Shown: piece by piece, positions 1-8,190 of the stretch
Layout: every line of letters starts with the position of its first letter
Numbering within the stretch: position 1 is the first letter of the stretch
Source of the DNA: an archaeon
Lineage (GTDB): Archaea > Asgardarchaeota > Thorarchaeia > Thorarchaeales > Thorarchaeaceae
Length of the DNA: 8,190 bases
Assembly (NCBI GenBank): GCA_024275415.1
Contig: JAJRZD010000123.1
Location: 1-8,190 of the forward strand
Direction: 5' to 3'
Position numbers and translations under genes: made by a program
The notes under the pieces: model-generated
What the model was told of the DNA's origin: nothing
The model's database searches: none
Seen by the model: the letters and a program-made list of their open reading frames with translations, nothing else

Positions 1-141
1 CGTAAAGGATCTATCATTGACTACTATATGTCCACATGATGCAATGGGACCGCATCGATATAGGGTAGTCATCATTGCGGGTACAAATGAGCCAAGAACC
101 CGCATATTTCAAGCATCAGTTGAATGGTGAATGACCAATGC
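1..141. repeat. Terminal direct repeat, copy 1 (identical to 8050-8190); closes the window into an 8,049-bp loop
   Basis: Base-by-base comparison: cgtaaaggatctatcattgac...gaatggtgaatgaccaatgc occurs at 1-141 and 8050-8190 with no mismatch. Confidence 0.98.
126..130 (+). promoter_or_regulatory. Shine-Dalgarno-like GGTGA for gene 1 (second copy at 8175-8179)
   Basis: GGTGA, a typical archaeal SD core, lies 7 nt upstream of the ATG at 138. Confidence 0.6.
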
Positions 142-1304
142 CCGAAGGACTTGCTGTACTAAAATGGGATGATGAACTCGGTCCGGTGGTCACCGCAAAG
201 ACCCCCAAGGGACTGAAACTCGGTCTTGACCCGACGACCTCAATGCGTGTTTATGGCATTGCAACGCTGGGCGAAACAGAAGAGGCACAAAGACCCGGAT
301 TTTCCTCTCTACCATTTCCCGACTTCAAGCTGGCTGTGTATTATGGTGGTTTGAACATGCACCTGAAGGGGCTGCCTTCTATGGTATTCCTCGTGCTGGG
401 GACTGACGAGGATCCTGACGCTTACAAGGATGCATTGCCTGAGATTGCCACTCAGATATTTCTGAACGCAGAAGGCAACGCCTATACGGCACTTGTACCC
501 AAGCTGTACAAACAGATATCCCGGTACACTCACATGACACCCGAACAGCGTCAGGCGTCTGTCGTCAATGACCCAGTGCGTCGTGCGATTCTGCAATCAT
601 TGATGAAACGTGGTTCTATCCTTTCGACCGACCTCGAGCAGCTTATTTTCGAAGAAGTAGGTAAGAAAATCGATGTGGAGATGGTGCTTCGTCCTCTCGT
701 AAAGATGGGAATCATTACGACTGGGTGGGTGGAGGGTCTCTCTTCTGAGGTAGTACATCTCACCCGTGCAATCCTCATCCAGAGAACTATTCCCGCTGAT
801 ACAGTGAAACAGCTCCGTTCTGGATATGCATCTACAGATGTTGCTAAGCAATACATTTCTAGCACGAAACGCTATCACAAAGAGTATATCGCACGGCTCA
901 GGATGAACCTCCATGAAACAGTCTGGCATGAAGCCGAAGAATTGGCAAGGATCATCCTTGACTTTGATTCTTATGACATTATTCAGCTCTTACGAAAAGG
1001 GCCTCAGATTCAGTCAAGTATTCCAGCTCTTCTCGACTTGAAAGAGTCCGTTGTGAAGAAAAAGATTCGTGAACTGGAAAAGAGCAATATCACTATCACA
1101 ATTGCGGATGACGAAGGCATCAAGCATGTATTCCTAAAATGCAACCCAGAGGTTCTCACCGTTTACCCTGAATGGCTTGTCGAGCGAACAGTGGATCTCT
1201 ACAATGAAGAAGATATCCAGTCCCGACAGGCAGTCCACTATCTTGAGCAATTGAAGATCAACCACCCGAGCAACGTTTCTGCAAAGTCAAAGGAGGCGCT
1301 CTAA
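138..1304 (+). CDS. Cytoplasmic protein with putative N-terminal longin/uDENN-like domain and two winged-helix-like domains (Asgard-type hypothetical protein)
   Basis: 388-aa ORF with SD and no TM segment. The N-terminal beta-strand plus WDDELGP (aa 10-16, nt 165-185) resembles the [FW]DxxxGP start of longin/uDENN domains. aa ~145-210 (DPVRRAILQSLMKRG...LRPLVKMGII) and aa ~275-335 (DSYDIIQLLRKGP...VVKKKIRELEKSNI) follow the wHTH pattern. Domain calls are by eye. The ORF is certain; the product is moderately certain. Confidence 0.75.
   Translation: MPEGLAVLKWDDELGPVVTAKTPKGLKLGLDPTTSMRVYGIATLGETEEAQRPGFSSLPFPDFKLAVYYGGLNMHLKGLPSMVFLVLGTDEDPDAYKDALPEIATQIFLNAEGNAYTALVPKLYKQISRYTHMTPEQRQASVVNDPVRRAILQSLMKRGSILSTDLEQLIFEEVGKKIDVEMVLRPLVKMGIITTGWVEGLSSEVVHLTRAILIQRTIPADTVKQLRSGYASTDVAKQYISSTKRYHKEYIARLRMNLHETVWHEAEELARIILDFDSYDIIQLLRKGPQIQSSIPALLDLKESVVKKKIRELEKSNITITIADDEGIKHVFLKCNPEVLTVYPEWLVERTVDLYNEEDIQSRQAVHYLEQLKINHPSNVSAKSKEAL
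1291..1296 (+). promoter_or_regulatory. Shine-Dalgarno AGGAGG for gene 2, embedded in the 3' end of gene 1; stop and start abut (TAAATG)
   Basis: aggagg at 1291-1296, TAA at 1302-1304, ATG at 1305-1307. This indicates translational coupling in an operon. Confidence 0.75.
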
Positions 1305-4300
1305 ATGAATACACAACAACGTCTGATTCTACTCATCGGTTTCTCTGTCCTATTCATGCTCCCCATGCTGACAGGGACACCTACCTCTCAATCAATCACT
1401 CCGAAGGTAAATCCTACAATGAGCATCGCTAATGTGGATGAAACCACCCCGTGGTGGAATGCTACGTATCACTATCGAATCCATGTCAATATCACGGATA
1501 CGAATTCTACTCCTCGGGTAGATGTGCCAATGTCCATGTGGTTCTCCTTCGATAACAACACCTGTTACAAGAACTCGATTCGGGTGACAGATGCCAATGG
1601 ACATGAAGTCCCATCACAAGTCTACAATACGACTTCTTGGGAGGATCCTGATTATTTCTCCGGTGCTACAGTATTCTGGTATGCTAACGTTTCAGCAGAT
1701 AGCACCGCCACATATTGGATTTATTTCTCAGAACTCAAATCGATAGAGATTCCCAACTATGAACCCGTCGTCTGGTTTGCACGAACCACTGGAACTCTTA
1801 CCGGTAAGTTCAGTCCGAACTTCTGGAGCTTCAGAGGCGATTGGTACAATGTCACCATGTTGAGTGCTTCTGGAGGCAAGATCACAAATGGTGCACACAA
1901 GATGGCTGATGGCTCATGGAATTGGGATTGGGGCACGAATCGAGGAAGCATGCATTGGAACCCAGACGGTCTGGGTGGTCAGACGACGAACAATCTCAAC
2001 CCCATAGCAGGAACCACTTTTGTGAACGAGGAAGGGCCTCTGTTCATCAATTATACCACTCAGCTGCCATTTGGCTCCTATGCCAAGATGAACGTCACTT
2101 ATACCTTCTACAGGTGGGGCTGGATAACCAGAACCTATATTCTCTATAGTGGGTCTACCAGCGGCAGTGGACGAACTGATGAGTGGGTGTTCTATCCATA
2201 TATCACAACTGGCGCAATAGAAGTGGCCGAGGATTTGACTCAGACCTCATACTCTAACTGGGTCGGATCATCAAACAAAGGGAAGCCTGCTGGCTTTGGC
2301 TGGTGGAATCCTAATGGTATCTCCCACGGCACTGTCAGGATCACACACGACAGCTGGAATACTGACCCAGCGTACCCGAATAACTATGACAACTACTATT
2401 ATCGTTGGTGGGATTATAGCTCCTACGAGTTCTGGGACACTGTGATTCCTACGATCTACGCACAGCCTGGGACTGTGCTTGAGGAACGGGTCGCCTTTGC
2501 TGCTTGGAACGGCAGTGAGGGTGCGGATGGGTATATGCGGGTCTTCAATGCCACCTCACGATACCTACCGCTCCTTAAAGAGAAGGGCGAAGTGTCCTCT
2601 TATTCTTTCAAAATCAATGTGAAGGACTTGGGCGGTTCGAATATCGAGGGTGTCAATGTGACCCTTTTTGATCAGAACACCGGCGAAAGGCTGATCAAAG
2701 CCTCTGGTGGTGTGTACACGGCACTTACCGACTCAAATGGCAATGTCACTTTTATTGGACTGTTCAACCAGACCTACAGGATTGACGCATGGATTGATAG
2801 TTCCACTTGGTTACAGCCTCAATTGGGTTCCACGGGCATGAACGTCACTTGGAGTGGCACTCGTGTTGCAGATGGCCCATTCACTCCTGTAGGCATTGTT
2901 CTTGACCTGGCGTCAATCAATATACACCTTAGTGACCTCATGGGAGACAGTCTTGCATCTGTCGGGGCTCAGACGATTCAAGTCCGAGTCTACAATGCCT
3001 CTGACCCAAATCGAGCTAATTGGCGGTATCTTGATTATGAGGCGACAGACAGCTCTGGAGACCTTACGTTCTTCCGACTACCAAAATGTGACTGGGTGTT
3101 CAACTTTACCTATTCAAATACGGACACAGGGCATATCTACACAGAAGCTGACCTCGGGAATTATATCTCATATTCAATACCTGCTACGGACATCACTGGT
3201 GACCTGTCCCGACCGAACTGGCAATTGCCATTGATCACGCTAGACTTCAATGTCAAGGCGTATGATGGTGCGAATGTGGAAACCGCTTATGTCCGTCTAT
3301 CAAAGCGAGGAACAGGGGATCCCATTGCGACAGGTGTGACTGATTACTACAATGTCACTCGTTTCACCGATGCTAATGGCAACGTCACTTTCTACAGAAT
3401 CCTGAATGGCACTTGGAACATCTATCTCTATCGCAATGATGATTTTGGTCAGACTGCATTTAACGACACAGAATCCGTTACGAATGTCCAAGGATATGAG
3501 CAACACGATCTAGTGATTCCGCTTACGTGGCTACGAGTTCTAGTTCAGGATGACAGCGGCTATCGTGTGCCAAGTGCAAAGGTCGATGTCAAGGTCAATG
3601 GACAACCACTGGTGACAGCCTACACAGACTCGTCGGGTTGGTACAACTTCACATGGATCATGGCAAATGATTCATCCATCCCAGTGGCATATACTGTGGA
3701 TGTAACCAAGCAAACCAGCTCAAGTACAAACGTTGTAGTGTATGCATCTTTCGACTATCTATATCACAATACGATAACAATTACCGGGCTTGCATACGGC
3801 TCGTTATATACCGAATTGAATGCCACAACATCCACATATTCATGGAAATATGGTGACAATAGAACTTTCATTATAGGATGGTACAATCGCACTGGATCTG
3901 ATGATGCGTCTGCTGTTGACACTCCTCTCACGAATTACAATCTGGGGCGGATGAATTTTAGCATCTACTGGCAGAATCAACTGGTAGGCATCGGATGGTG
4001 GAACAGCACATCACCTTCCTACATCGCACACAGTGCATCAGATGGCATTTACTTTACGCTCATCATTGATACAATCCATTTCAAGATGAACGCAAGTGGC
4101 TATCCCTATCTCATAAAGATCAACGCCTCAGCACCGGGGTACTCGACAACCGATATCTACACTATCACGGTTGTCATCACTCCTGCATCCACAGTCAGAA
4201 ATGGAGTGACATCAGATGTTCAGTACTGGAGTGATGGTTTCACCTTGTTTTACTCATTGACAACATCTCCAGAAGGCAGAAACACATTCAACCTGACAGC

Positions 4301-7300
4301 TCTTGACTACTTCAATTACACAGTCTATGACGGCTCGAGCGCTATCTCATCTGGTACCCTATCAGACATAGGTGGTGGGATTTATAGATTCACAGATGCT
4401 ATACTGAATGCATCCGATGCAGGTGACTACAGCGTATTGATATGGTTGCACAAGTTCAATTATCAGAATCATTCCTTTACTGTATCACTGACCATCAATG
4501 CAGTTCCCACATCGCTTTCATGGTCGAGCCCTCCCGGTGATTACACCTGGGGTTCTGGGAGTGAGATTACTACGCTCCTCTTCTATGACAATTGGCATAA
4601 CACTTCAATTCTCACCGCAGACTCCATTGTTCTGCAGTGGATCAATGTAGATACTGGAGAGATTGTCCTTACTGATACATCTACTCTTTTGACTTACACG
4701 TATAACAGGGATATAGTCGCCAATGGGACTTGGCAAATCCACGCATATGTTTCCAAGTCGAATTTCATCGGCAGCGATGCTCTCTCGTTGGTATTTACCG
4801 TATCCCCTGTGACCACTCAGATTATTCTGACCTCCTCAAATGAGGTGACTGTGGCATGGGGCAGTGAATATGCGACGTTCGACTTCGACTACGAACATGT
4901 ATCTCCCACTTTGGCTGTTGCAGGTGGTGAAATAATTGCTATCGATTGGACTGGTGAATACAGTCTGGTGGACAATGGCGATGGCTCATACCAGTTGAGA
5001 TTGCTCCCTGTCCAAGAGGCTGCGAATTACACCTTCACATTCTATATGTGGATTGCAAACCGTACGAAGGCATCTGCCACCGTCACGGTGAACGTTCTCA
5101 TTCCTCTTGAGGTGAGGGCTGTGGCAGGTTCATCGATACAGGATCCGATAAGCGAGTACTGGACAAGGAACTTCACGCTGCAGATCAATGCGGGTGATCT
5201 TTCGAATGTATCCACTTACGTTTCTGGGGTGACCGTCACCTACACATTCGCAGCAGGTGGCATCTCAGGGGTTATGACCGAGAACATGAGTGGCCAGTAC
5301 TACTATATCGAGTTTCCTGCAAGCTCGGCTCCCGGACCAGGGATATATGAGATTAATATTGACGCAACAAGGGTTGGATGCACAGGGACGACAACCTCAA
5401 TATTTATTGAAGTGATTGCCACCCCGACTCTGGCTGCTGCTGAAACTCAGCTGCTCACTGTCTACTATGCCGATATCTTGGATTTGAATTTCACATGGAC
5501 TACTTCGATTGATGACCATGCTGGGGTTTCTGCCCCTGACAGCGTGACAATCTCGCTATGGAAAGGCATCAACCAGATCAACTCGGATATAGGTGGTGTT
5601 ATCGACTTTGGGAACGGTTCTTACACATTCCAAGTCAACACCAAGACACTGCAGATGACTGCCGACTCCCCGCTTGCTCCAACTGGCTACTACTTTGTCA
5701 TCACTATTAACAAGCTGGGCTATGGCGACCCACTGGCTGTCACGATCATCGTGCTTGTCCTCCAGACACCGACCGAGATGACTGCCGACCAGATTGATCC
5801 CGTTGTGTGGTCTGAAACCCTGACAATCAATGTTCATCTGAAAGATATTATCCACTCGGAGTACGTCTGGGAGAATGCGACTGTGACTCTGATATATGGT
5901 GGATTTGCGCAGAACTTTACTTCCCTAGGCAATGGGACTTTCACGATATCCTTCGATTCCCAGCTTGCCTTCAACTCTTCCGATACACCCCATCATGCCA
6001 CCATCGAGTATACACTACCAAACTACATCGACGGCTCGATAGGTGTTGATGTGCTTGTGAACCCAGTTGCTGCGAGTATTGTCCTCGACACGCTTGAAAA
6101 TGCATATGACTGGAACTCCACCTTTGCATTAACCCTCGCAATTGTTCTGGACTCCAACTCACTGATTCGGGTTAATGTCACCAGAGTGTACTTTTATTGG
6201 ACTGGCTACCCCACAATCCAAGGCACACTCGTTTATGATTCGACATGGAGCGATTATCGAGGGACAGTTGATACAGGAAAAGTGCCAGCAGGGGCACGGA
6301 CGCTAAACATTGTCGCGGAGAGGCAGAACTACAGCATCCCAGTTGTACAAATCAACCTGACCGTTCGCGAGTTGGACACCGAACTCACACCCGATACGGA
6401 AGCCCTCTTCGTCATCTTTGGCGTGGATCAGAGCGCTGAGGTTCGTTTCACCTATGTAAGTGGTTCGAATGTGCTTGAAGGAGCCACGATGACTTTCCTT
6501 TGGGCTGGATTGGAGCGTAGCGCGTCATGGGCGGACGGGGAATACGTTTTCCAGTTCAATCCTTCTGGAGATTCTTCTTTGGTCGTCCCTGGCACTTATG
6601 TCTTGAACTTCTCGGCGTCGTTGATGAATTACACCTCACAGACCGCAAGTGTGGTTCTCCATCTCTCGGCTGCGACTGATATAGTCGGCGGTCCATTCAG
6701 AGTGGAAGAAGGACAGAGTTTCATCCTGATCTTTGCATATTGGGATATGGTGAATGACCGTCCAGTGGGAGCCACAGCATCAGTCCAGTACATCATTGGT
6801 GGCGTGACTCATGATGTGGACGCTTCTCAGTTCAACGGCACTCATTATCTAATCCCGCTGACTGCCTCCGAAGTAGGTGAGATACGAACCGAGCCCTATC
6901 TGATACAGATTCTTGCTAGTGCTCCTGGATATCAGAACTGGACACAGTCTGTATCAAAGACTGTCCAAGTCTATATTCTCAGCCCAACAGTCAACGTGTT
7001 GGGGCTGTTCACCGTTCAGCGCGATATACTGTTCCTTGTGATTGCGATGACAGGGTTCTTTGCGTTCATTGCTGGTGCCGGAATCGGCATTCAGCGGTGG
7101 CGAATCCCCCATGTTATCAAGCAGATCAACAAGGCAATCAAGCAAATGGAGGCCGGGAAGGTCGCTAGCGTCGAGGGAATAAAGAGCATGGGACAGGTCA
7201 TCGCCGAGATACTCGCTCCAGGGTTAGCTGAGCTGGACATCGAAGCCCCAATCATCGACTCGATTTCTGAAGGGATGTTCTTAGGAGCTGAAGAGCCTGA

Positions 7301-7883
7301 GGACATCCTGAGCGAGCTTGACACTCTGGACGACCTGATTGAGGAACCCGATGTGGTTCCCGAGGACAGTACGGTTGATTTCGAGGCTGAACTTGAGGCA
7401 GAGCTTGACACGATTGTTGAAGAAACACCAGTCGAAGCCGAGCCAGAAGTTCCCGCGGTCAAAGAACCTGAAGCAGAATCTGAGGACATGGAAACAGATA
7501 TCGAGAAATCCGATATTGACGAGGACAGTGAGCCAGAGTCTGAGGAGGTCGAATCTGTTCCAGAACCCGATGAATCTCCAGAGGTTGAAGAACCCTCAGA
7601 AGACGTTGTTAAGGAGTCCATCGAGGAGTCTGATGAATCCGATGAGGTGGATGCGCCTCTTGACAATGAGGTTTCTGAACCTGCCGAGATTTCCGAGCCC
7701 GAATCTGACTCGACTACTGATCAAGAGGTTGAACCGACTGAATCAGAGGAATCTCTACCAGATGCGGATGATACAGTCGATGAACAAGAGCAGGAGGATG
7801 TAGAGGACATTCTGGATCTGGAAGACGAGGATGAATTATCCGATAGCCTTCCTGATGACGATTGGGATGAGGCCATCGAATAG
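1305..7883 (+). CDS. Giant single-pass cell-surface glycoprotein (adhesin or S-layer-associated type) with DUF2341-like domain, CarboxypepD_reg-like and Ig-like repeats, and an acidic cytoplasmic tail
   Basis: 2192-aa ORF. The N-terminal hydrophobic signal is LILLIGFSVLFMLPML. The ectodomain is T/S/Y/N/V-rich and beta-like, with ~55 N-x-S/T sequons by manual count. The TM helix is aa 1908-1929 (ILFLVIAMTGFFAFIAGAGIGI, nt 7026-7091), followed by basic QRWR...K residues (positive-inside rule) and a D/E/P/S-rich tail. Confidence 0.9.
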   Translation: MNTQQRLILLIGFSVLFMLPMLTGTPTSQSITPKVNPTMSIANVDETTPWWNATYHYRIHVNITDTNSTPRVDVPMSMWFSFDNNTCYKNSIRVTDANGHEVPSQVYNTTSWEDPDYFSGATVFWYANVSADSTATYWIYFSELKSIEIPNYEPVVWFARTTGTLTGKFSPNFWSFRGDWYNVTMLSASGGKITNGAHKMADGSWNWDWGTNRGSMHWNPDGLGGQTTNNLNPIAGTTFVNEEGPLFINYTTQLPFGSYAKMNVTYTFYRWGWITRTYILYSGSTSGSGRTDEWVFYPYITTGAIEVAEDLTQTSYSNWVGSSNKGKPAGFGWWNPNGISHGTVRITHDSWNTDPAYPNNYDNYYYRWWDYSSYEFWDTVIPTIYAQPGTVLEERVAFAAWNGSEGADGYMRVFNATSRYLPLLKEKGEVSSYSFKINVKDLGGSNIEGVNVTLFDQNTGERLIKASGGVYTALTDSNGNVTFIGLFNQTYRIDAWIDSSTWLQPQLGSTGMNVTWSGTRVADGPFTPVGIVLDLASINIHLSDLMGDSLASVGAQTIQVRVYNASDPNRANWRYLDYEATDSSGDLTFFRLPKCDWVFNFTYSNTDTGHIYTEADLGNYISYSIPATDITGDLSRPNWQLPLITLDFNVKAYDGANVETAYVRLSKRGTGDPIATGVTDYYNVTRFTDANGNVTFYRILNGTWNIYLYRNDDFGQTAFNDTESVTNVQGYEQHDLVIPLTWLRVLVQDDSGYRVPSAKVDVKVNGQPLVTAYTDSSGWYNFTWIMANDSSIPVAYTVDVTKQTSSSTNVVVYASFDYLYHNTITITGLAYGSLYTELNATTSTYSWKYGDNRTFIIGWYNRTGSDDASAVDTPLTNYNLGRMNFSIYWQNQLVGIGWWNSTSPSYIAHSASDGIYFTLIIDTIHFKMNASGYPYLIKINASAPGYSTTDIYTITVVITPASTVRNGVTSDVQYWSDGFTLFYSLTTSPEGRNTFNLTALDYFNYTVYDGSSAISSGTLSDIGGGIYRFTDAILNASDAGDYSVLIWLHKFNYQNHSFTVSLTINAVPTSLSWSSPPGDYTWGSGSEITTLLFYDNWHNTSILTADSIVLQWINVDTGEIVLTDTSTLLTYTYNRDIVANGTWQIHAYVSKSNFIGSDALSLVFTVSPVTTQIILTSSNEVTVAWGSEYATFDFDYEHVSPTLAVAGGEIIAIDWTGEYSLVDNGDGSYQLRLLPVQEAANYTFTFYMWIANRTKASATVTVNVLIPLEVRAVAGSSIQDPISEYWTRNFTLQINAGDLSNVSTYVSGVTVTYTFAAGGISGVMTENMSGQYYYIEFPASSAPGPGIYEINIDATRVGCTGTTTSIFIEVIATPTLAAAETQLLTVYYADILDLNFTWTTSIDDHAGVSAPDSVTISLWKGINQINSDIGGVIDFGNGSYTFQVNTKTLQMTADSPLAPTGYYFVITINKLGYGDPLAVTIIVLVLQTPTEMTADQIDPVVWSETLTINVHLKDIIHSEYVWENATVTLIYGGFAQNFTSLGNGTFTISFDSQLAFNSSDTPHHATIEYTLPNYIDGSIGVDVLVNPVAASIVLDTLENAYDWNSTFALTLAIVLDSNSLIRVNVTRVYFYWTGYPTIQGTLVYDSTWSDYRGTVDTGKVPAGARTLNIVAERQNYSIPVVQINLTVRELDTELTPDTEALFVIFGVDQSAEVRFTYVSGSNVLEGATMTFLWAGLERSASWADGEYVFQFNPSGDSSLVVPGTYVLNFSASLMNYTSQTASVVLHLSAATDIVGGPFRVEEGQSFILIFAYWDMVNDRPVGATASVQYIIGGVTHDVDASQFNGTHYLIPLTASEVGEIRTEPYLIQILASAPGYQNWTQSVSKTVQVYILSPTVNVLGLFTVQRDILFLVIAMTGFFAFIAGAGIGIQRWRIPHVIKQINKAIKQMEAGKVASVEGIKSMGQVIAEILAPGLAELDIEAPIIDSISEGMFLGAEEPEDILSELDTLDDLIEEPDVVPEDSTVDFEAELEAELDTIVEETPVEAEPEVPAVKEPEAESEDMETDIEKSDIDEDSEPESEEVESVPEPDESPEVEEPSEDVVKESIEESDESDEVDAPLDNEVSEPAEISEPESDSTTDQEVEPTESEESLPDADDTVDEQEQEDVEDILDLEDEDELSDSLPDDDWDEAIE
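1452..1730 (+). other. DUF2341-like domain within gene 2 (aa ~50-142)
   Basis: The pattern WWNATYHYRIHVNIT...NSIRVTDANGHEVPSQ...ATVFWYANVSADSTATYWIYF matches the W-x-Y-R-x-x-I...(D/S)IR...Y-x-YY(G) layout I recognise for DUF2341 in archaeal and bacterial surface proteins. No HMM was run. Confidence 0.65.
2601..3780 (+). repeat. Four carboxypeptidase-regulatory-like (transthyretin-like beta-sandwich) protein repeats in gene 2
   Basis: A recurrent [FLI]x[VL]xDxxG...TDxxGx[VLY]xF motif: TDSNGNVTF (2727), TDSSGDLTF (3045), TDANGNVTF (3366), TDSSGWYNF (3624). Spacings are 106, 107 and 86 aa. Confidence 0.75.
3800..6990 (+). repeat. About ten divergent Ig-like stalk repeats of ~100-125 aa in gene 2
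   Basis: Module boundaries recur at nt ~4182, 4506, 4806, 5103, 5424, 5769, 6063, 6369, 6669 and 6984 (VVITPAST, TINAVPTS, FTVSPVTT, NVLIPLEV, EVIATPT, LVLQTPT, VLVNPVA, LTVRELDT, LHLSAATD, VYILSPT). Internal beta-hairpins are DIGGGIY, DNGDGSY, ENMSGQY, DFGNGSY, SLGNGTF and WADGEY. The similarity is at protein level only. Confidence 0.75.
7092..7880 (+). other. 263-aa predicted cytoplasmic region of gene 2: juxtamembrane amphipathic helix, then an acidic low-complexity (disordered) tail from ~7290
   Basis: Follows the TM helix. RIPHVIKQINKAIKQMEAGK is helical and basic. From EEPEDIL onward the sequence is dominated by E, D, S, P and V, with no N-x-S/T sequon. Confidence 0.8.
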
Positions 7884-7916: not shown

Positions 7917-7948
7917 GAAATGAGCCCAAAAAGGCTCATTTCCTTTTT
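7917..7948 (+). terminator. Hairpin plus T-tract, probable transcription terminator of the operon
   Basis: Perfect 10-bp stem gaaatgagcc (7917-7926) / ggctcatttc (7933-7942) with loop caaaaa, followed by ctttttctatttct. It begins 33 nt after the gene 2 stop. Confidence 0.75.
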
Positions 7949-8050
7949 CTATTTCTTAATTAATGTAATTCATACATGCTACCTTTCTCATTTTTAAAAA
8001 AGAGGTCACACAGGATTTTCTTATTAGTAACTGGATGTTCTATTTATTCC
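7941..8050. promoter_or_regulatory. AT-rich intergenic patch, likely containing the operon promoter
   Basis: 30 G+C in 110 nt (27%), visibly lower than the coding sequence. It lies between the terminator and the gene 1 leader once the ends are joined. TATA-like candidates are tttttaaaaa (7991-8000) and tatttatt (8041-8048), but neither has a convincing BRE. Confidence 0.4.
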
Positions 8051-8190
8051 GTAAAGGATCTATCATTGACTACTATATGTCCACATGATGCAATGGGACC
8101 GCATCGATATAGGGTAGTCATCATTGCGGGTACAAATGAGCCAAGAACCCGCATATTTCAAGCATCAGTTGAATGGTGAATGACCAATGC
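8050..8190. repeat. Terminal direct repeat, copy 2 (identical to 1-141); its last 4 nt (atgc, 8187-8190) are the start of gene 1 again
   Basis: Exact match to positions 1-141. The window ends 4 nt into the gene 1 reading frame. Confidence 0.98.

Follow-up and report, generated by a model that had tools for sequence, protein, structure and literature searches.

Why would a soluble protein with a longin fold be encoded in direct translational succession with a giant surface glycoprotein that carries a long cytoplasmic tail? The window, by which we mean the whole 8190-bp stretch of DNA analysed here, is an entire contig and holds one such pair, gene 1 (g1) and a giant, with no GTPase gene of its own. 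The explanation we consider probable is that the pair is one unit of a tandem g1-giant array, in which g1 would be an adaptor linking swappable giants to an Arf-like GTPase.

A coupled gene pair on a contig with identical ends

The g1 open reading frame (388 aa) ends with a TAA at 1302-1304 that directly abuts the ATG of the giant at 1305-1307, and an AGGAGG lies within g1 at 1291-1296. A sequence-only reading had singled out this TAAATG junction with its internal AGGAGG, and the reading frames and junction bear it out. Such tight coupling is not a single case but recurs in orthologues, the gap between g1 and giant being 0-2 nt in the orthologous loci L005, L006, two ENA contigs, G003, L009 and L012. 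The features of the contig are as follows.

1-141, + strand: left copy of an exact 141-bp terminal repeat (g1 5' leader and first 4 coding bases)
1-438, + strand: tract in common with a paralogous g1 copy on contig C8
138-1304, + strand: g1, cytoplasmic longin domain, winged helix, helical linker, ArsR-like winged helix and conserved C-terminal segment
1291-1307, + strand: coupling junction (AGGAGG, 5 nt, TAAATG; AGGAGG to ATG, 8 nt)
1305-7883, + strand: A-type giant surface glycoprotein, 2192 aa, type-I topology
7917-7952, + strand: terminator-like hairpin and T-run, 34 nt past the giant stop codon (z = -3.7)
8007-8029, + strand: promoter-like motif (CAAGATTnTCTTATTAG type), ~160 nt ahead of the following g1 start
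8050-8190, + strand: right-hand 141-bp repeat, with which the next g1 unit begins

The identical first and last 141 bases raise the question of whether the contig is a free circular element of 8049 bp, plasmid-like or an excised cassette, carrying only g1 and giant A. An exact terminal overlap is what assemblers leave on circular paths, no other contig of the 127 in the assembly has one, and a ring of this size is compatible with the assembly graph taken alone. We nevertheless regard a circle as very improbable. The same repeat, in reverse complement, ends contig C68, which overlaps contig C125 by 141 bp beside the orthologous thiolase gene, and it runs on as an identical tract into the g1 copy on C8. 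Moreover, a relative (G003) carries both units in tandem, as g1-A-g1-B-Arf, on a 1.55-Mb contig with a spacing of 8066 bp, against 8049 bp in the window. The window contig has no replication, partition, integrase or mobility gene, and in GC content it matches the genome (47.7% versus 47.0%). We infer that the window is most likely a tandem unit of a g1-A-g1-B-Arf arrangement rather than a circle. It would then be one g1 and giant A unit of a chromosomal array in a Thorarchaeota genome, in the order thiolase, one antisense surface-protein gene and g1-giant A, followed on C8 by g1'-giant B, an Arf-like GTPase and four proteins that are small or coiled-coil.

The giants fall into two old types, A and B, of which A is the rarer. 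Relatives with the same flanking genes show five layouts: g1-B, g1-A, g1-B-A, A-g1-B and g1-A-g1-B. The two g1 copies of this genome are mosaic: their identity is 92% for aa 42-212 and falls to 52% for aa 213-380. On the nucleotide level, identity to the end of C8 is 97-100% for bases 259-438, while the 3' half of g1 reaches just 43-70%. We read the shared tract at 1-438 as a putative gene-conversion tract and as the probable cause of the assembly break. The tails of the window giant A and the C8 giant B are 55% identical. G003 has two g1 copies that are 96% identical and two tails that are 97% identical, and its giants share 33% identity. At one locus (L009), the giant after g1 is only a deleted remnant, and in another genome (G077) an extra A giant also precedes g1.

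Domain architecture of g1 and its neighbouring giant

A structure model of g1 (mean pLDDT 75) and a fold search uphold the longin and winged-helix assignment first made from the sequence; the modelled fold is an NPRL2-type longin domain with two winged helices.

138-536, + strand: longin domain (aa 1-133, fold search), with W10-D11 and G15-P16 just ahead of strand 2
555-773, + strand: first winged helix (aa 140-212), Z 8.0-8.6 against the cullin WHB, TA0346 and Rpa2 winged helices
774-1271, + strand: predicted docking half (aa 213-378), with a helical linker, an ArsR/SmtB-like winged helix (aa 255-345) and an invariant TVYPEWL...HYLxxL segment

The top fold matches of the longin domain are GATOR1 8fw5_B (Z 10.3, rmsd 2.7, 120 aligned) and the SEA complex 8adl_S (Z 9.8), and Foldseek rows for full-length g1 include GATOR1 subunits (probability 0.75-0.98, E ~2e-3). 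W10-D11 and G15-P16 are nearly invariant, with the W, D and G retained across 23 distant homologues, and the WD-x3-GP spacing equals that of W33-D34/G38-P39 in C9orf72. The GP motif has been reported to be specific to GAP-type longins (PMC12290439). Across the g1 family, no arginine of the longin domain is invariant, and g1 alone is therefore unlikely to be an arginine-finger GAP.

The giant likewise has the type-I layout that had been proposed for it, with an ectodomain then put at ~1,900 aa. A signal-like hydrophobic segment at the N terminus (aa 6-25) and one further transmembrane-like segment (aa 1907-1929), followed by basic residues, delimit an ectodomain of ~1,880 aa and a tail of 263 aa. 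Its parts are as follows.

1392-2609, + strand: A-type head (aa 30-435), opening with a DUF2341-like WWN..Y.YR motif
2610-7019, + strand: stalk of beta-sandwich/Ig-like domains (aa 436-1905), from profile scores
7023-7091, + strand: transmembrane helix
7095-7274, + strand: conserved juxtamembrane segment (aa 1931-1990), predicted g1 docking site
7275-7439, + strand: two more conserved tail motifs, LLxELDxLD and DFEAELEAEL (aa 1991-2045), outside the predicted g1 interface
7440-7880, + strand: strongly acidic, variable distal tail (aa 2046-2192)

The ectodomain contains 55 N-x-S/T sequons where ~25 are expected from composition, and the tail contains none and is 38% Asp+Glu. In the stalk, CarboxypepD_reg (33.5 bits, cut-off 32.3) and an Ig_DR_A0283-like domain (27.7, cut-off 27.1) score above their thresholds; Big_1, SdrD_B and SpaA all fall under theirs. 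The head, whose DUF2341 name comes from a fused relative, is the most conserved region within type A (67-79% identity) and the most divergent from type B (21-28%). When A and B giants are compared, identity is 60% in the juxtamembrane segment and 21-33% in the ectodomains. Among the invariant tail residues is an IP..IKQI core.

Predicted docking, a proposed GTPase link and competing explanations

In other genomes, the downstream side of a close g1 orthologue was read at 12 loci, and at each of them a tail-bearing giant comes next. An Odinarchaeum g1 homologue lies two genes from a type-I protein of 1552 aa with a tail of ~200 aa, and at least seven representative proteins, from Lokiarchaeota or Promethearchaeota according to their source names, combine in one chain an ectodomain, a transmembrane segment, a basic juxtamembrane motif resembling that of the giant, and the g1 module. 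The neighbourhood survey that the sequence-only reading had called for thus finds g1 next to, or fused with, tail-bearing giants, and does not contradict the proposed module. In orthologous loci, the g1-giant pair is followed by a conserved Arf-like GTPase and four further genes, and two distant g1 paralogues in the same genome each precede an N-extended Arf-like GTPase, which gives substance to the small-GTPase link suggested earlier. We found no sequence similarity between the g1 longin domain and the GTPase N-terminal extension, so any pairing of these two is hypothetical. The caveat that this might be a common uncharacterised Asgard gene pair was well placed: it is a common Thorarchaeota gene set, with g1 matches of E ~1e-150 or better (61-76% identity) in ~45 of the 87 genomes of the class.

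A complex of g1 with the giant, also part of the original proposal, is supported by modelling. With giant aa 1926-2045, g1 gives a median ipSAE of 0.84 over three runs, a measure of model confidence obtained with self-built input alignments, and the best of three controls gives 0.00; 58 of 80 solved complexes reach this value, as do 2 of 110 mismatched pairs. The runs share at least 61% of contacts, with a partner pLDDT of at least 61. The C-terminal half of g1 is predicted to sit on the juxtamembrane segment, contacting it through aa 213-262 and 340-378; residues 346-388 are disordered in the monomer model yet fall within this predicted interface. Predicted contact residues are enriched at conserved positions in both chains (odds ratios 3.3 and 3.4; p = 0.002 and 0.006). 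These models suggest that g1 binds the giant tail. The C-terminal interface motif FPEYL...HLxLL is also kept in g1 paralogues without an adjacent giant, so the groove may serve another ligand or an internal contact. Strict one-to-one pairing is weakened by L012, G011 and G081, where one g1 serves two giants, since the tails of the two are just 65-75% identical (L012 and G011, both tails read).

Taken together, sequence and model evidence largely supports the receptor-adaptor interpretation, every checkable inference having held. In the mechanism we favour, the giant would be a type-I surface protein that bears glycans, with a head particular to its type, a long beta-sandwich stalk and a conserved segment of ~60 residues just inside the membrane, which cytoplasmic g1 would clamp with its C-terminal half. 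The N-terminal half, a GAP-type longin (WD-x3-GP) with the first winged helix, would be held near-identical between copies by gene conversion and would face shared cytoplasmic machinery, most plausibly the Arf-like GTPase. With swappable giants, a docking half and a shared N-half, the gene set may thus tie alternative surface proteins to one small-GTPase switch. Surface engagement could be reported inward, or the giant could be placed on the cell; the direction of signalling, like any GAP or GEF action of g1, is presumptive.

That second outcome shades into a different explanation, rather unlikely in our estimate, wherein g1 transduces no signal but solely serves the biogenesis, trafficking or positioning of the giant. 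It would hold the tail while the giant is inserted into the membrane or afterwards, and together with the GTPase would determine where on the cell the giant sits. Translational coupling would give matched production, docking is predicted on the juxtamembrane segment, one giant can stand in for another while the module stays the same, and, from the part of the literature covered, longin/roadblock proteins with small GTPases often act in localisation, as in MglA/MglB polarity. Yet there are g1 paralogues that sit beside Arf-like GTPases and have no giant, which argues that the core job of the family is not giant-specific, and the fusions keep the g1 module permanently on the mature protein, a better fit to a resident adaptor than to a transient chaperone. 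This explanation differs from the adaptor one solely in the direction of action. The second winged helix invites a further alternative, that g1 is a membrane-tethered ArsR-type transcription factor, sequestered by the giant tail until a surface signal frees it to regulate genes, its own operon included. This helix resembles ArsR/SmtB and MarR repressors (Z 8-9.2, fold search; profile E = 0.001 to a Sulfolobus MarR-type regulator), and the conserved promoter-like motif stands at a comparable position upstream of g1 in 12 of 12 copies compared. Pfam HTH_20 is passed by the C8 copy (34 bits, cut-off 27) but not by the window g1 (19 bits). Net charges of -5 (second winged-helix region) and 0 (first) are atypical for DNA-binding surfaces, winged helices in eukaryotic longin GAP subunits such as those in the GATOR1 rows serve protein contacts, and the conserved pairing is with GTPases; we consider a transcription factor improbable.

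Relation to known longin systems and surface proteins

New here are the A/B giant typing, the five locus layouts, the putative g1 gene conversion and the controlled docking prediction, together with the finding that the window spans a complete contig whose ends overlap by 141 bp and most likely represents one tandem unit. A conserved gene set appears to have in this unit a second, exchangeable "front end"; as the set goes on to an Arf-like small GTPase, surface protein, regulator and GTPase can be tested together. The catalogue of Liu et al. (bioRxiv 10.1101/2020.10.19.343400) lists an Asgard 'NPRL2-like' longin family that most likely includes g1; where the term occurs in its main text, this family is not connected with giants at the cell surface, A/B cassettes, tail docking or an operon with an Arf-like GTPase.

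Among eukaryotic longin GAP complexes, we compared GATOR1 NPRL2-NPRL3 (Rag), C9orf72-SMCR8-WDR41 (Arf) and FLCN-FNIP (RagC). Like these, g1 has a longin domain, structurally nearest a GATOR1 subunit, with winged helices after it, and is genetically tied to Arf-family GTPases; like C9orf72, it has a GP ahead of strand 2, preceded by a WD at a distance of five residues. Unlike them, it has no DENN module and no family-wide longin arginine finger, no second longin subunit was identified for it, and its predicted dock is a surface-protein tail rather than a lysosomal scaffold. In Ragulator/LAMTOR1, the EGO complex (Rag GTPases) and bacterial MglA-MglB, as far as the sources covered go, roadblock/longin-fold proteins tether a small GTPase, or control it, at a specific place on the membrane; MglB, for one, is a prokaryotic roadblock GAP for a Ras-like GTPase. 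Those systems are anchored by a small lipidated protein or by a landmark at the cell pole, whereas here the anchor would be a 2,000-residue extracellular glycoprotein, and g1 carries additional winged helices and a separate, predicted docking half. The giant itself was compared with archaeal surface proteins and adhesins that carry DUF2341-like heads and Ig-like repeats. Like them, it has a signal peptide and a DUF2341-like motif in its N-terminal part, beta-sandwich repeats rich in sequons, and an anchor in the membrane towards the C terminus. It differs from archaeal adhesins in its cytoplasmic tail, the first 60-115 residues of which are the part most conserved between giant types, and in having what is predicted to be a dedicated, translationally coupled cytoplasmic partner.

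A coupled gene pair and its neighborhood

The contig C109 (8190 bp) is one of 127 contigs in the 3.5-Mb Thorarchaeota genome G000 (GCA_024275415.1), and it is filled by two genes, here called g1 and the giant. Its features are as follows.

1-141 and 8050-8190: exact 141-bp direct repeat
138-1304 (+): g1, longin/winged-helix protein, 388 aa
1291-1296: AGGAGG, afterwards the TAA of g1 abutting the ATG of the giant
1305-7883 (+): giant, surface glycoprotein, 2192 aa
7091-7666 (-): 191-aa open reading frame (ORF), antisense to the giant
7917-7952: hairpin and T-run after the giant stop codon (z = -3.7)
8007-8029: CAAGATTnTCTTATTAG-type motif

On re-reading the sequence, the TAAATG junction with its internal AGGAGG was as the sequence-only reading had described it. 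The claimed gene pair, with a type-I giant carrying a 263-aa tail, was likewise borne out by the ORFs, the single transmembrane helix and the sequon contrast. Apart from a signal-like N-terminus (aa 6-25), the giant has a single hydrophobic helix (aa 1907-1929), with basic residues after it. We counted 55 N-glycosylation sequons in the ectodomain, where about 25 would be expected, and found no sequon in the tail. Pfam recovers prealbumin/Ig-like beta-sandwich repeats, with CarboxypepD_reg and Ig_DR_A0283-like matches exceeding cut-offs. The tail is 38% Asp+Glu and includes a conserved segment of 60-115 aa. The 191-aa antisense ORF overlaps the region coding for this acidic tail and is probably a by-product of GA-rich codons, not a gene.

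The GC content of the window agrees with that of the genome, and scans of the window for Rfam families, tRNAs and tandem repeats found none. The 5' leader of g1 (1-150) has no unusual structure (z = -1.5), and its sequence differs between genera except for a promoter-like motif. The CAAGATTnTCTTATTAG-type motif lies upstream of g1 in 12/12 copies compared, about 160 nt away in the window, and resembles a BRE/TATA promoter followed by a long leader.

Other Thorarchaeota, on long contigs, have carboxylase subunits and a thiolase ahead of g1 and the giant, followed by an Arf-like GTPase (263-300 aa), 3-4 small or coiled-coil proteins and an acyl-CoA dehydrogenase. The canonical set of G000 is on another contig, C8, where a second g1 copy (g1', 72% identity to g1) precedes a giant of 2411-2419 aa that is 33% identical to that of the window. 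After this giant come an Arf-like GTPase of 292 aa, extended at its N-terminus by 120 aa, and proteins of 183, 129, 439 and 113 aa. Two distant g1 paralogues in G000 (C127:40484-43029 and C28:43390-45350; 379 and 368 aa) each precede an Arf-like GTPase with the same 120-aa kind of extension, and neither adjoins a giant; a 1288-aa transmembrane protein lies about 9 kb downstream of the C127 copy. Because these paralogues stand beside an Arf-like GTPase without a giant, the g1 family appears tied to Arf-like GTPases independently of the giant, by genetic linkage only. The C127 cluster also includes a Ras-like GTPase and a TPR protein.

Beyond Thorarchaeota, in the complete genome of Odinarchaeum LCB_4, a type-I protein of 1552 aa with a roughly 200-aa tail stands two genes downstream of a g1 homologue. 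A whole g1 module is fused to a signal peptide, a long sequon-rich ectodomain, a transmembrane helix and a basic juxtamembrane motif of the K-I-P-x-F-V-K-K type in seven representative proteins or more, some of which are named Lokiarchaeota or Promethearchaeota by their sources. In the Thorarchaeota genus g11, the search with g1 as query gave only a distant g1 paralogue (E ~1e-22) and no close orthologue in 19/28 genomes, which suggests that the cassette was lost or replaced there, or dropped out in assembly.

Giant types, locus layouts and the pseudo-circular contig

The giants fall into two main types that share 30-34% identity. Type A takes in the window giant plus six database clusters, two being partial; its members are 50-65% identical to one another and, if complete, about 2170-2230 aa long. 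Type B, the majority of giants, measures about 2320-2450 aa. The database protein P0297 is the sole representative of a third type. Within each type the head (aa 30-435) shows the strongest conservation, and between types it shows the greatest divergence. An A head is present in 11/87 genomes of the class, spread over 7/17 genera. A model of it (aa 30-440, from a 7-sequence alignment) reached a mean pLDDT of 38.9, with only about residues 20-120 folded, and an Atlas feature search returned unnamed bacterial clusters only, besides weak matches below 0.9 to PcRGLX-like lyase sandwiches and DUF4861 that are leads only.

In one of the 11 A-head genomes, from the window's own genus, the giant is an internally deleted remnant. 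At this locus (L009:5053-7477, GCA_029210805.1) the A-type giant is reduced to ORFs of 91 and 693 aa, which retain head residues 1-85, stalk residues ~1144-1459 (numbered from aa 441), the transmembrane helix and an 84% identical juxtamembrane segment (giant aa 1931-1990). Judged from its sequence, it is an internal deletion that spares the tail.

Comparing loci between the same flanking thiolase and Arf genes, we observed five layouts.

Gene order between the flanking thiolase and Arf genes (G and L numbers denote relatives)
g1-B: most genomes
g1-A: G014, G009
g1-B-A: G011, G081, L012
A-g1-B: G077
g1-A-g1-B: G003

The repeated ends of the window contig can be read against these layouts. Contig C68 terminates in the same 141 bases as the window ends, and beside the orthologous thiolase it shares an overlap of exactly 141 bp with C125. 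The first base of contig C8 corresponds to window position 259; from there to 438 the two contigs are 97-100% identical, and beyond that identity is 43-70%. The 141-bp overlaps resemble breaks of a k = 141 assembly graph at a repeated 5' region of g1, and the graph passes from the chromosomal flank into a repeat of about 400-530 bp, then through the A unit and the repeat a second time to the B unit. Such a graph is compatible with a tandem array and also with a circle plus a single chromosomal copy.

A small circular plasmid or an excised mobile cassette would account for the exact 141-bp terminal overlap, but the repeat connects to the chromosomal contigs C68/C125 and C8. Moreover, we found no replication, partition, integration or mobility genes on the window contig, which holds only g1 and the giant, and the tandem form itself occurs in G003, where g1-A-g1-B-Arf stands on a 1.55-Mb contig with a unit spacing of 8066 bp against 8049 bp in the window. 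We therefore read the window contig as most likely a tandem unit and consider a circle very improbable. We also rejected a merger of two strains with alternative cassettes in the assembled genome, because the 3' flank of giant A enters a g1 promoter and leader, not the upstream region of the Arf gene. Between the thiolase and g1, G000 has an antisense gene for a surface protein of about 830 aa (C125:1-360 plus C68:480-2618) with a Thr-rich linker, a transmembrane helix and a KKR stop-transfer; the thiolase-g1 gap of relatives is intergenic spacer only, about 150-380 nt.

Domains of g1 and its predicted docking on the tail

The g1 protein is strongly conserved, with 65-76% identity to proteins from Thorarchaeota assemblies and a nearly invariant stretch of 215 N-terminal residues. 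Going by the names of its closest database proteins, the genome belongs to Thorarchaeota. Its AlphaFold model (mean pLDDT 75; residues 346-388 below 50) has the following parts.

aa 1-133: longin-like alpha/beta domain
aa 140-212: first winged helix
between the two winged helices: helical linker
aa 255-345: second winged helix
after the second winged helix: C-terminal segment, disordered in the monomer model

The assignment of longin and winged-helix domains, made initially from sequence alone, held up in structural comparison, which returned longin domains of GATOR1 and SEA and winged helices of the ArsR/SmtB type. In an exhaustive comparison the longin domain (model residues 1-146) matched GATOR1 best (8fw5_B, Z 10.3, rmsd 2.7, 120 aligned) and the SEA complex second (8adl_S, Z 9.8), with VAMP7 and a Lokiarchaeota longin ranking after (Z 8.7-9.2). 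The second winged helix matched ArsR/SmtB-type repressors at Z 8-9.2. A domain-wise structural aligner was needed, since a Foldseek search of the PDB with full-length g1 gave no row at E <= 0.001, listing several GATOR1 subunits at weak E-values. A profile search against PDB sequences found only MarR/ArsR-type winged helices, matching the second one, and no longin protein; NCBIfam gave no match.

The first 60 residues inside the membrane are 60% identical between A and B giants, versus 21-33% for the ectodomains and 30% for the transmembrane helix, and 20 aligned tails have a mean column identity of 65% over 120 residues. Following the suggestion that the two products form a complex, g1 was modeled with giant residues 1926-2045, using alignments as input for both chains and the median of three runs. 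The predicted complex reached an ipSAE of 0.84, a model confidence, versus 0.00 for the best of three controls; this score is attained by 58/80 solved complexes and 2/110 mismatched pairs. We know of no solved complex of this kind, so a memorized structure is unlikely to underlie the score. The runs share at least 61% of contacts, with a partner pLDDT of at least 61. In the predicted interface, g1 residues 213-262 and 340-378 lie against tail residues 1935-1985, and it takes in the C-terminal segment of g1 left disordered by the monomer model. Predicted contacts are enriched in conserved positions on both chains (odds ratios 3.3 and 3.4, p = 0.002 and 0.006). The invariant core of the tail reads I-P-x2-I-K-Q-I and MG..I.E.LAPGLA.LD, and g1 carries the segments T-V-Y-P-E-W-L and H-Y-L. 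As a caution, the interface motif FPEYL...HLxLL is conserved also in g1 paralogues without an adjacent giant. The tail motifs LLxELDxLD and DFEAELEAEL (window 7275-7439, giant aa 1991-2045) are conserved, acidic and outside the predicted interface, and may be candidate sites for other components or another partner. Four giants from other genomes (P0280, P0281, P0287 and P0297) have an alternative conserved C-terminal motif, ..ELI..LP..VKESM.EE.L.KLSKKEL.AL..S.., which is missing from both G000 giants.

The two g1 copies of G000 are mosaic. They share 92% identity over aa 42-212 and 52% over aa 213-380, a divergence equal to that of copies from different genera; the N-terminal half was evidently homogenized by gene conversion, and the docking half (aa 213-378) was not. 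For the docking half of the window copy, the nearest match (63%) is the g1 of a congener in which the giant survives as an A-type remnant, its juxtamembrane segment 84% identical. In G003, the g1 copies are 96% and the juxtamembrane segments 97% identical, with giants only 33% identical. Between A and B giants, the juxtamembrane segments are 75-77% identical in G077 and G011, with lineage-specific features in common, 65% in L012 and 55% in G000. These few anecdotal cases fit co-evolution of tail and docking half, with a longin half that may serve a shared partner.

A proposed resident adaptor between surface protein and GTPase

A GP motif ending the loop ahead of strand 2 is reported to be specific to GAP-type longins, the class of NPRL2, FLCN, SMCR8 and C9orf72, and in C9orf72 an essential W33-D34 stands five residues ahead of G38-P39 (2025 study, PMC12290439). 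The g1 protein has W10-D11-x3-G15-P16, a spacing identical to that of C9orf72. Its G15-P16 lies just ahead of strand 15-22 and is at least 90% conserved among 20 Thorarchaeota orthologues; distant homologues keep the Gly, not the Pro. The W, D and G are retained in 23 diverse homologues with identity down to 18%, W and D being nearly invariant. A search of the longin domain for an arginine finger found no Arg invariant across the family; R37 is conserved in close Thorarchaeota orthologues only and sits in a low-confidence loop of the model. Subunits of the C9orf72, NPRL3 and FNIP type have no arginine finger. Lacking a family-wide conserved Arg in this domain, g1 looks closer to the finger-less partner type (C9orf72, NPRL3) than to a GAP that acts alone. 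In the GAP-type longin class, a second longin subunit forms the catalytic pocket as part of a heterodimer. A candidate for such a partner is the stretch of 120 aa that extends the Arf-like GTPase at its N-terminus; a profile comparison of the GTPase and g1 alignments gave no meaningful match (probability 0.2). Members of the class stimulate GTP hydrolysis by GTPases of the Rag or Arf family, and for g1 it is genetic linkage to Arf-like GTPases that was shown. The g1 protein most likely belongs to the Asgard NPRL2-like family catalogued by Liu et al. (bioRxiv 10.1101/2020.10.19.343400).

We find most support for g1 as a resident adaptor, with a C-terminal half that would rest on the juxtamembrane segment of the giant and a GAP-type longin half that would be turned toward the Arf-like GTPase and the helical proteins whose genes lie downstream of the B unit. 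Such a system could either signal surface engagement inward or place and traffic the giant. The ArsR/SmtB fold of the second winged helix could instead suggest a membrane-tethered transcription factor. We consider this less likely, because the region 259-345 is acidic (net charge -5), the window g1 scores 19 bits against a Pfam HTH_20 cut-off of 27 bits (g1' on C8 scores 34 bits), and every g1 paralogue is paired with a GTPase. ArsR/SmtB repressors are also stand-alone dimers with a basic DNA-binding surface, whereas this winged helix is embedded in a 388-aa multidomain protein.

As an elaboration of the adaptor reading, we tentatively propose, as a possibility still on the doubtful side, a Thorarchaeota outside-in system in which giant receptors with swappable A or B heads, each head type having its own ligands, dock via the conserved juxtamembrane segment on a longin adaptor, whose homogenized C9orf72/NPRL2-like N-terminal half regulates a single Arf-like GTPase and coiled-coil effectors. 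If true, this would be a prokaryotic forerunner of the coupling of receptors or cargo to small GTPases in eukaryotic adhesion, endocytosis or nutrient sensing. Our literature search found no description of a link of the g1 family to the giant, to an Arf-like GTPase operon or to a docking interface. New contributions are the typing of giants as A or B, the five layouts of the locus, a tandem unit as the explanation for the pseudo-circular contig, the mosaic of g1 attributed to gene conversion, a docking prediction run against controls and mapped to residues, and the WD-x3-GP observation.

The giant has the traits of archaeal glycosylated surface proteins, namely a signal peptide, beta-sandwich repeats, sequon enrichment and a C-terminal anchor. 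It differs from archaeal adhesins and S-layer-like proteins, which usually have little or no cytoplasmic part, in its 263-aa tail. Eukaryote-like small GTPases number in the dozens in Asgard archaea, as do longin or roadblock proteins. Asgard regulators are hard to match to their GTPases because operons are rarely shared (PMC10933270). This locus offers a matched set of a surface protein, an adaptor with the GAP-type longin motif, an Arf-like GTPase and a predicted, mutable docking interface of about 60 residues, and its A/B cassettes, together with a mosaic adaptor of common N-terminal half and diverged docking half, amount to an experiment of nature on specificity. Should binding and GTPase regulation be confirmed, longin/GTPase signaling coupled to a membrane receptor would be older than eukaryotes.
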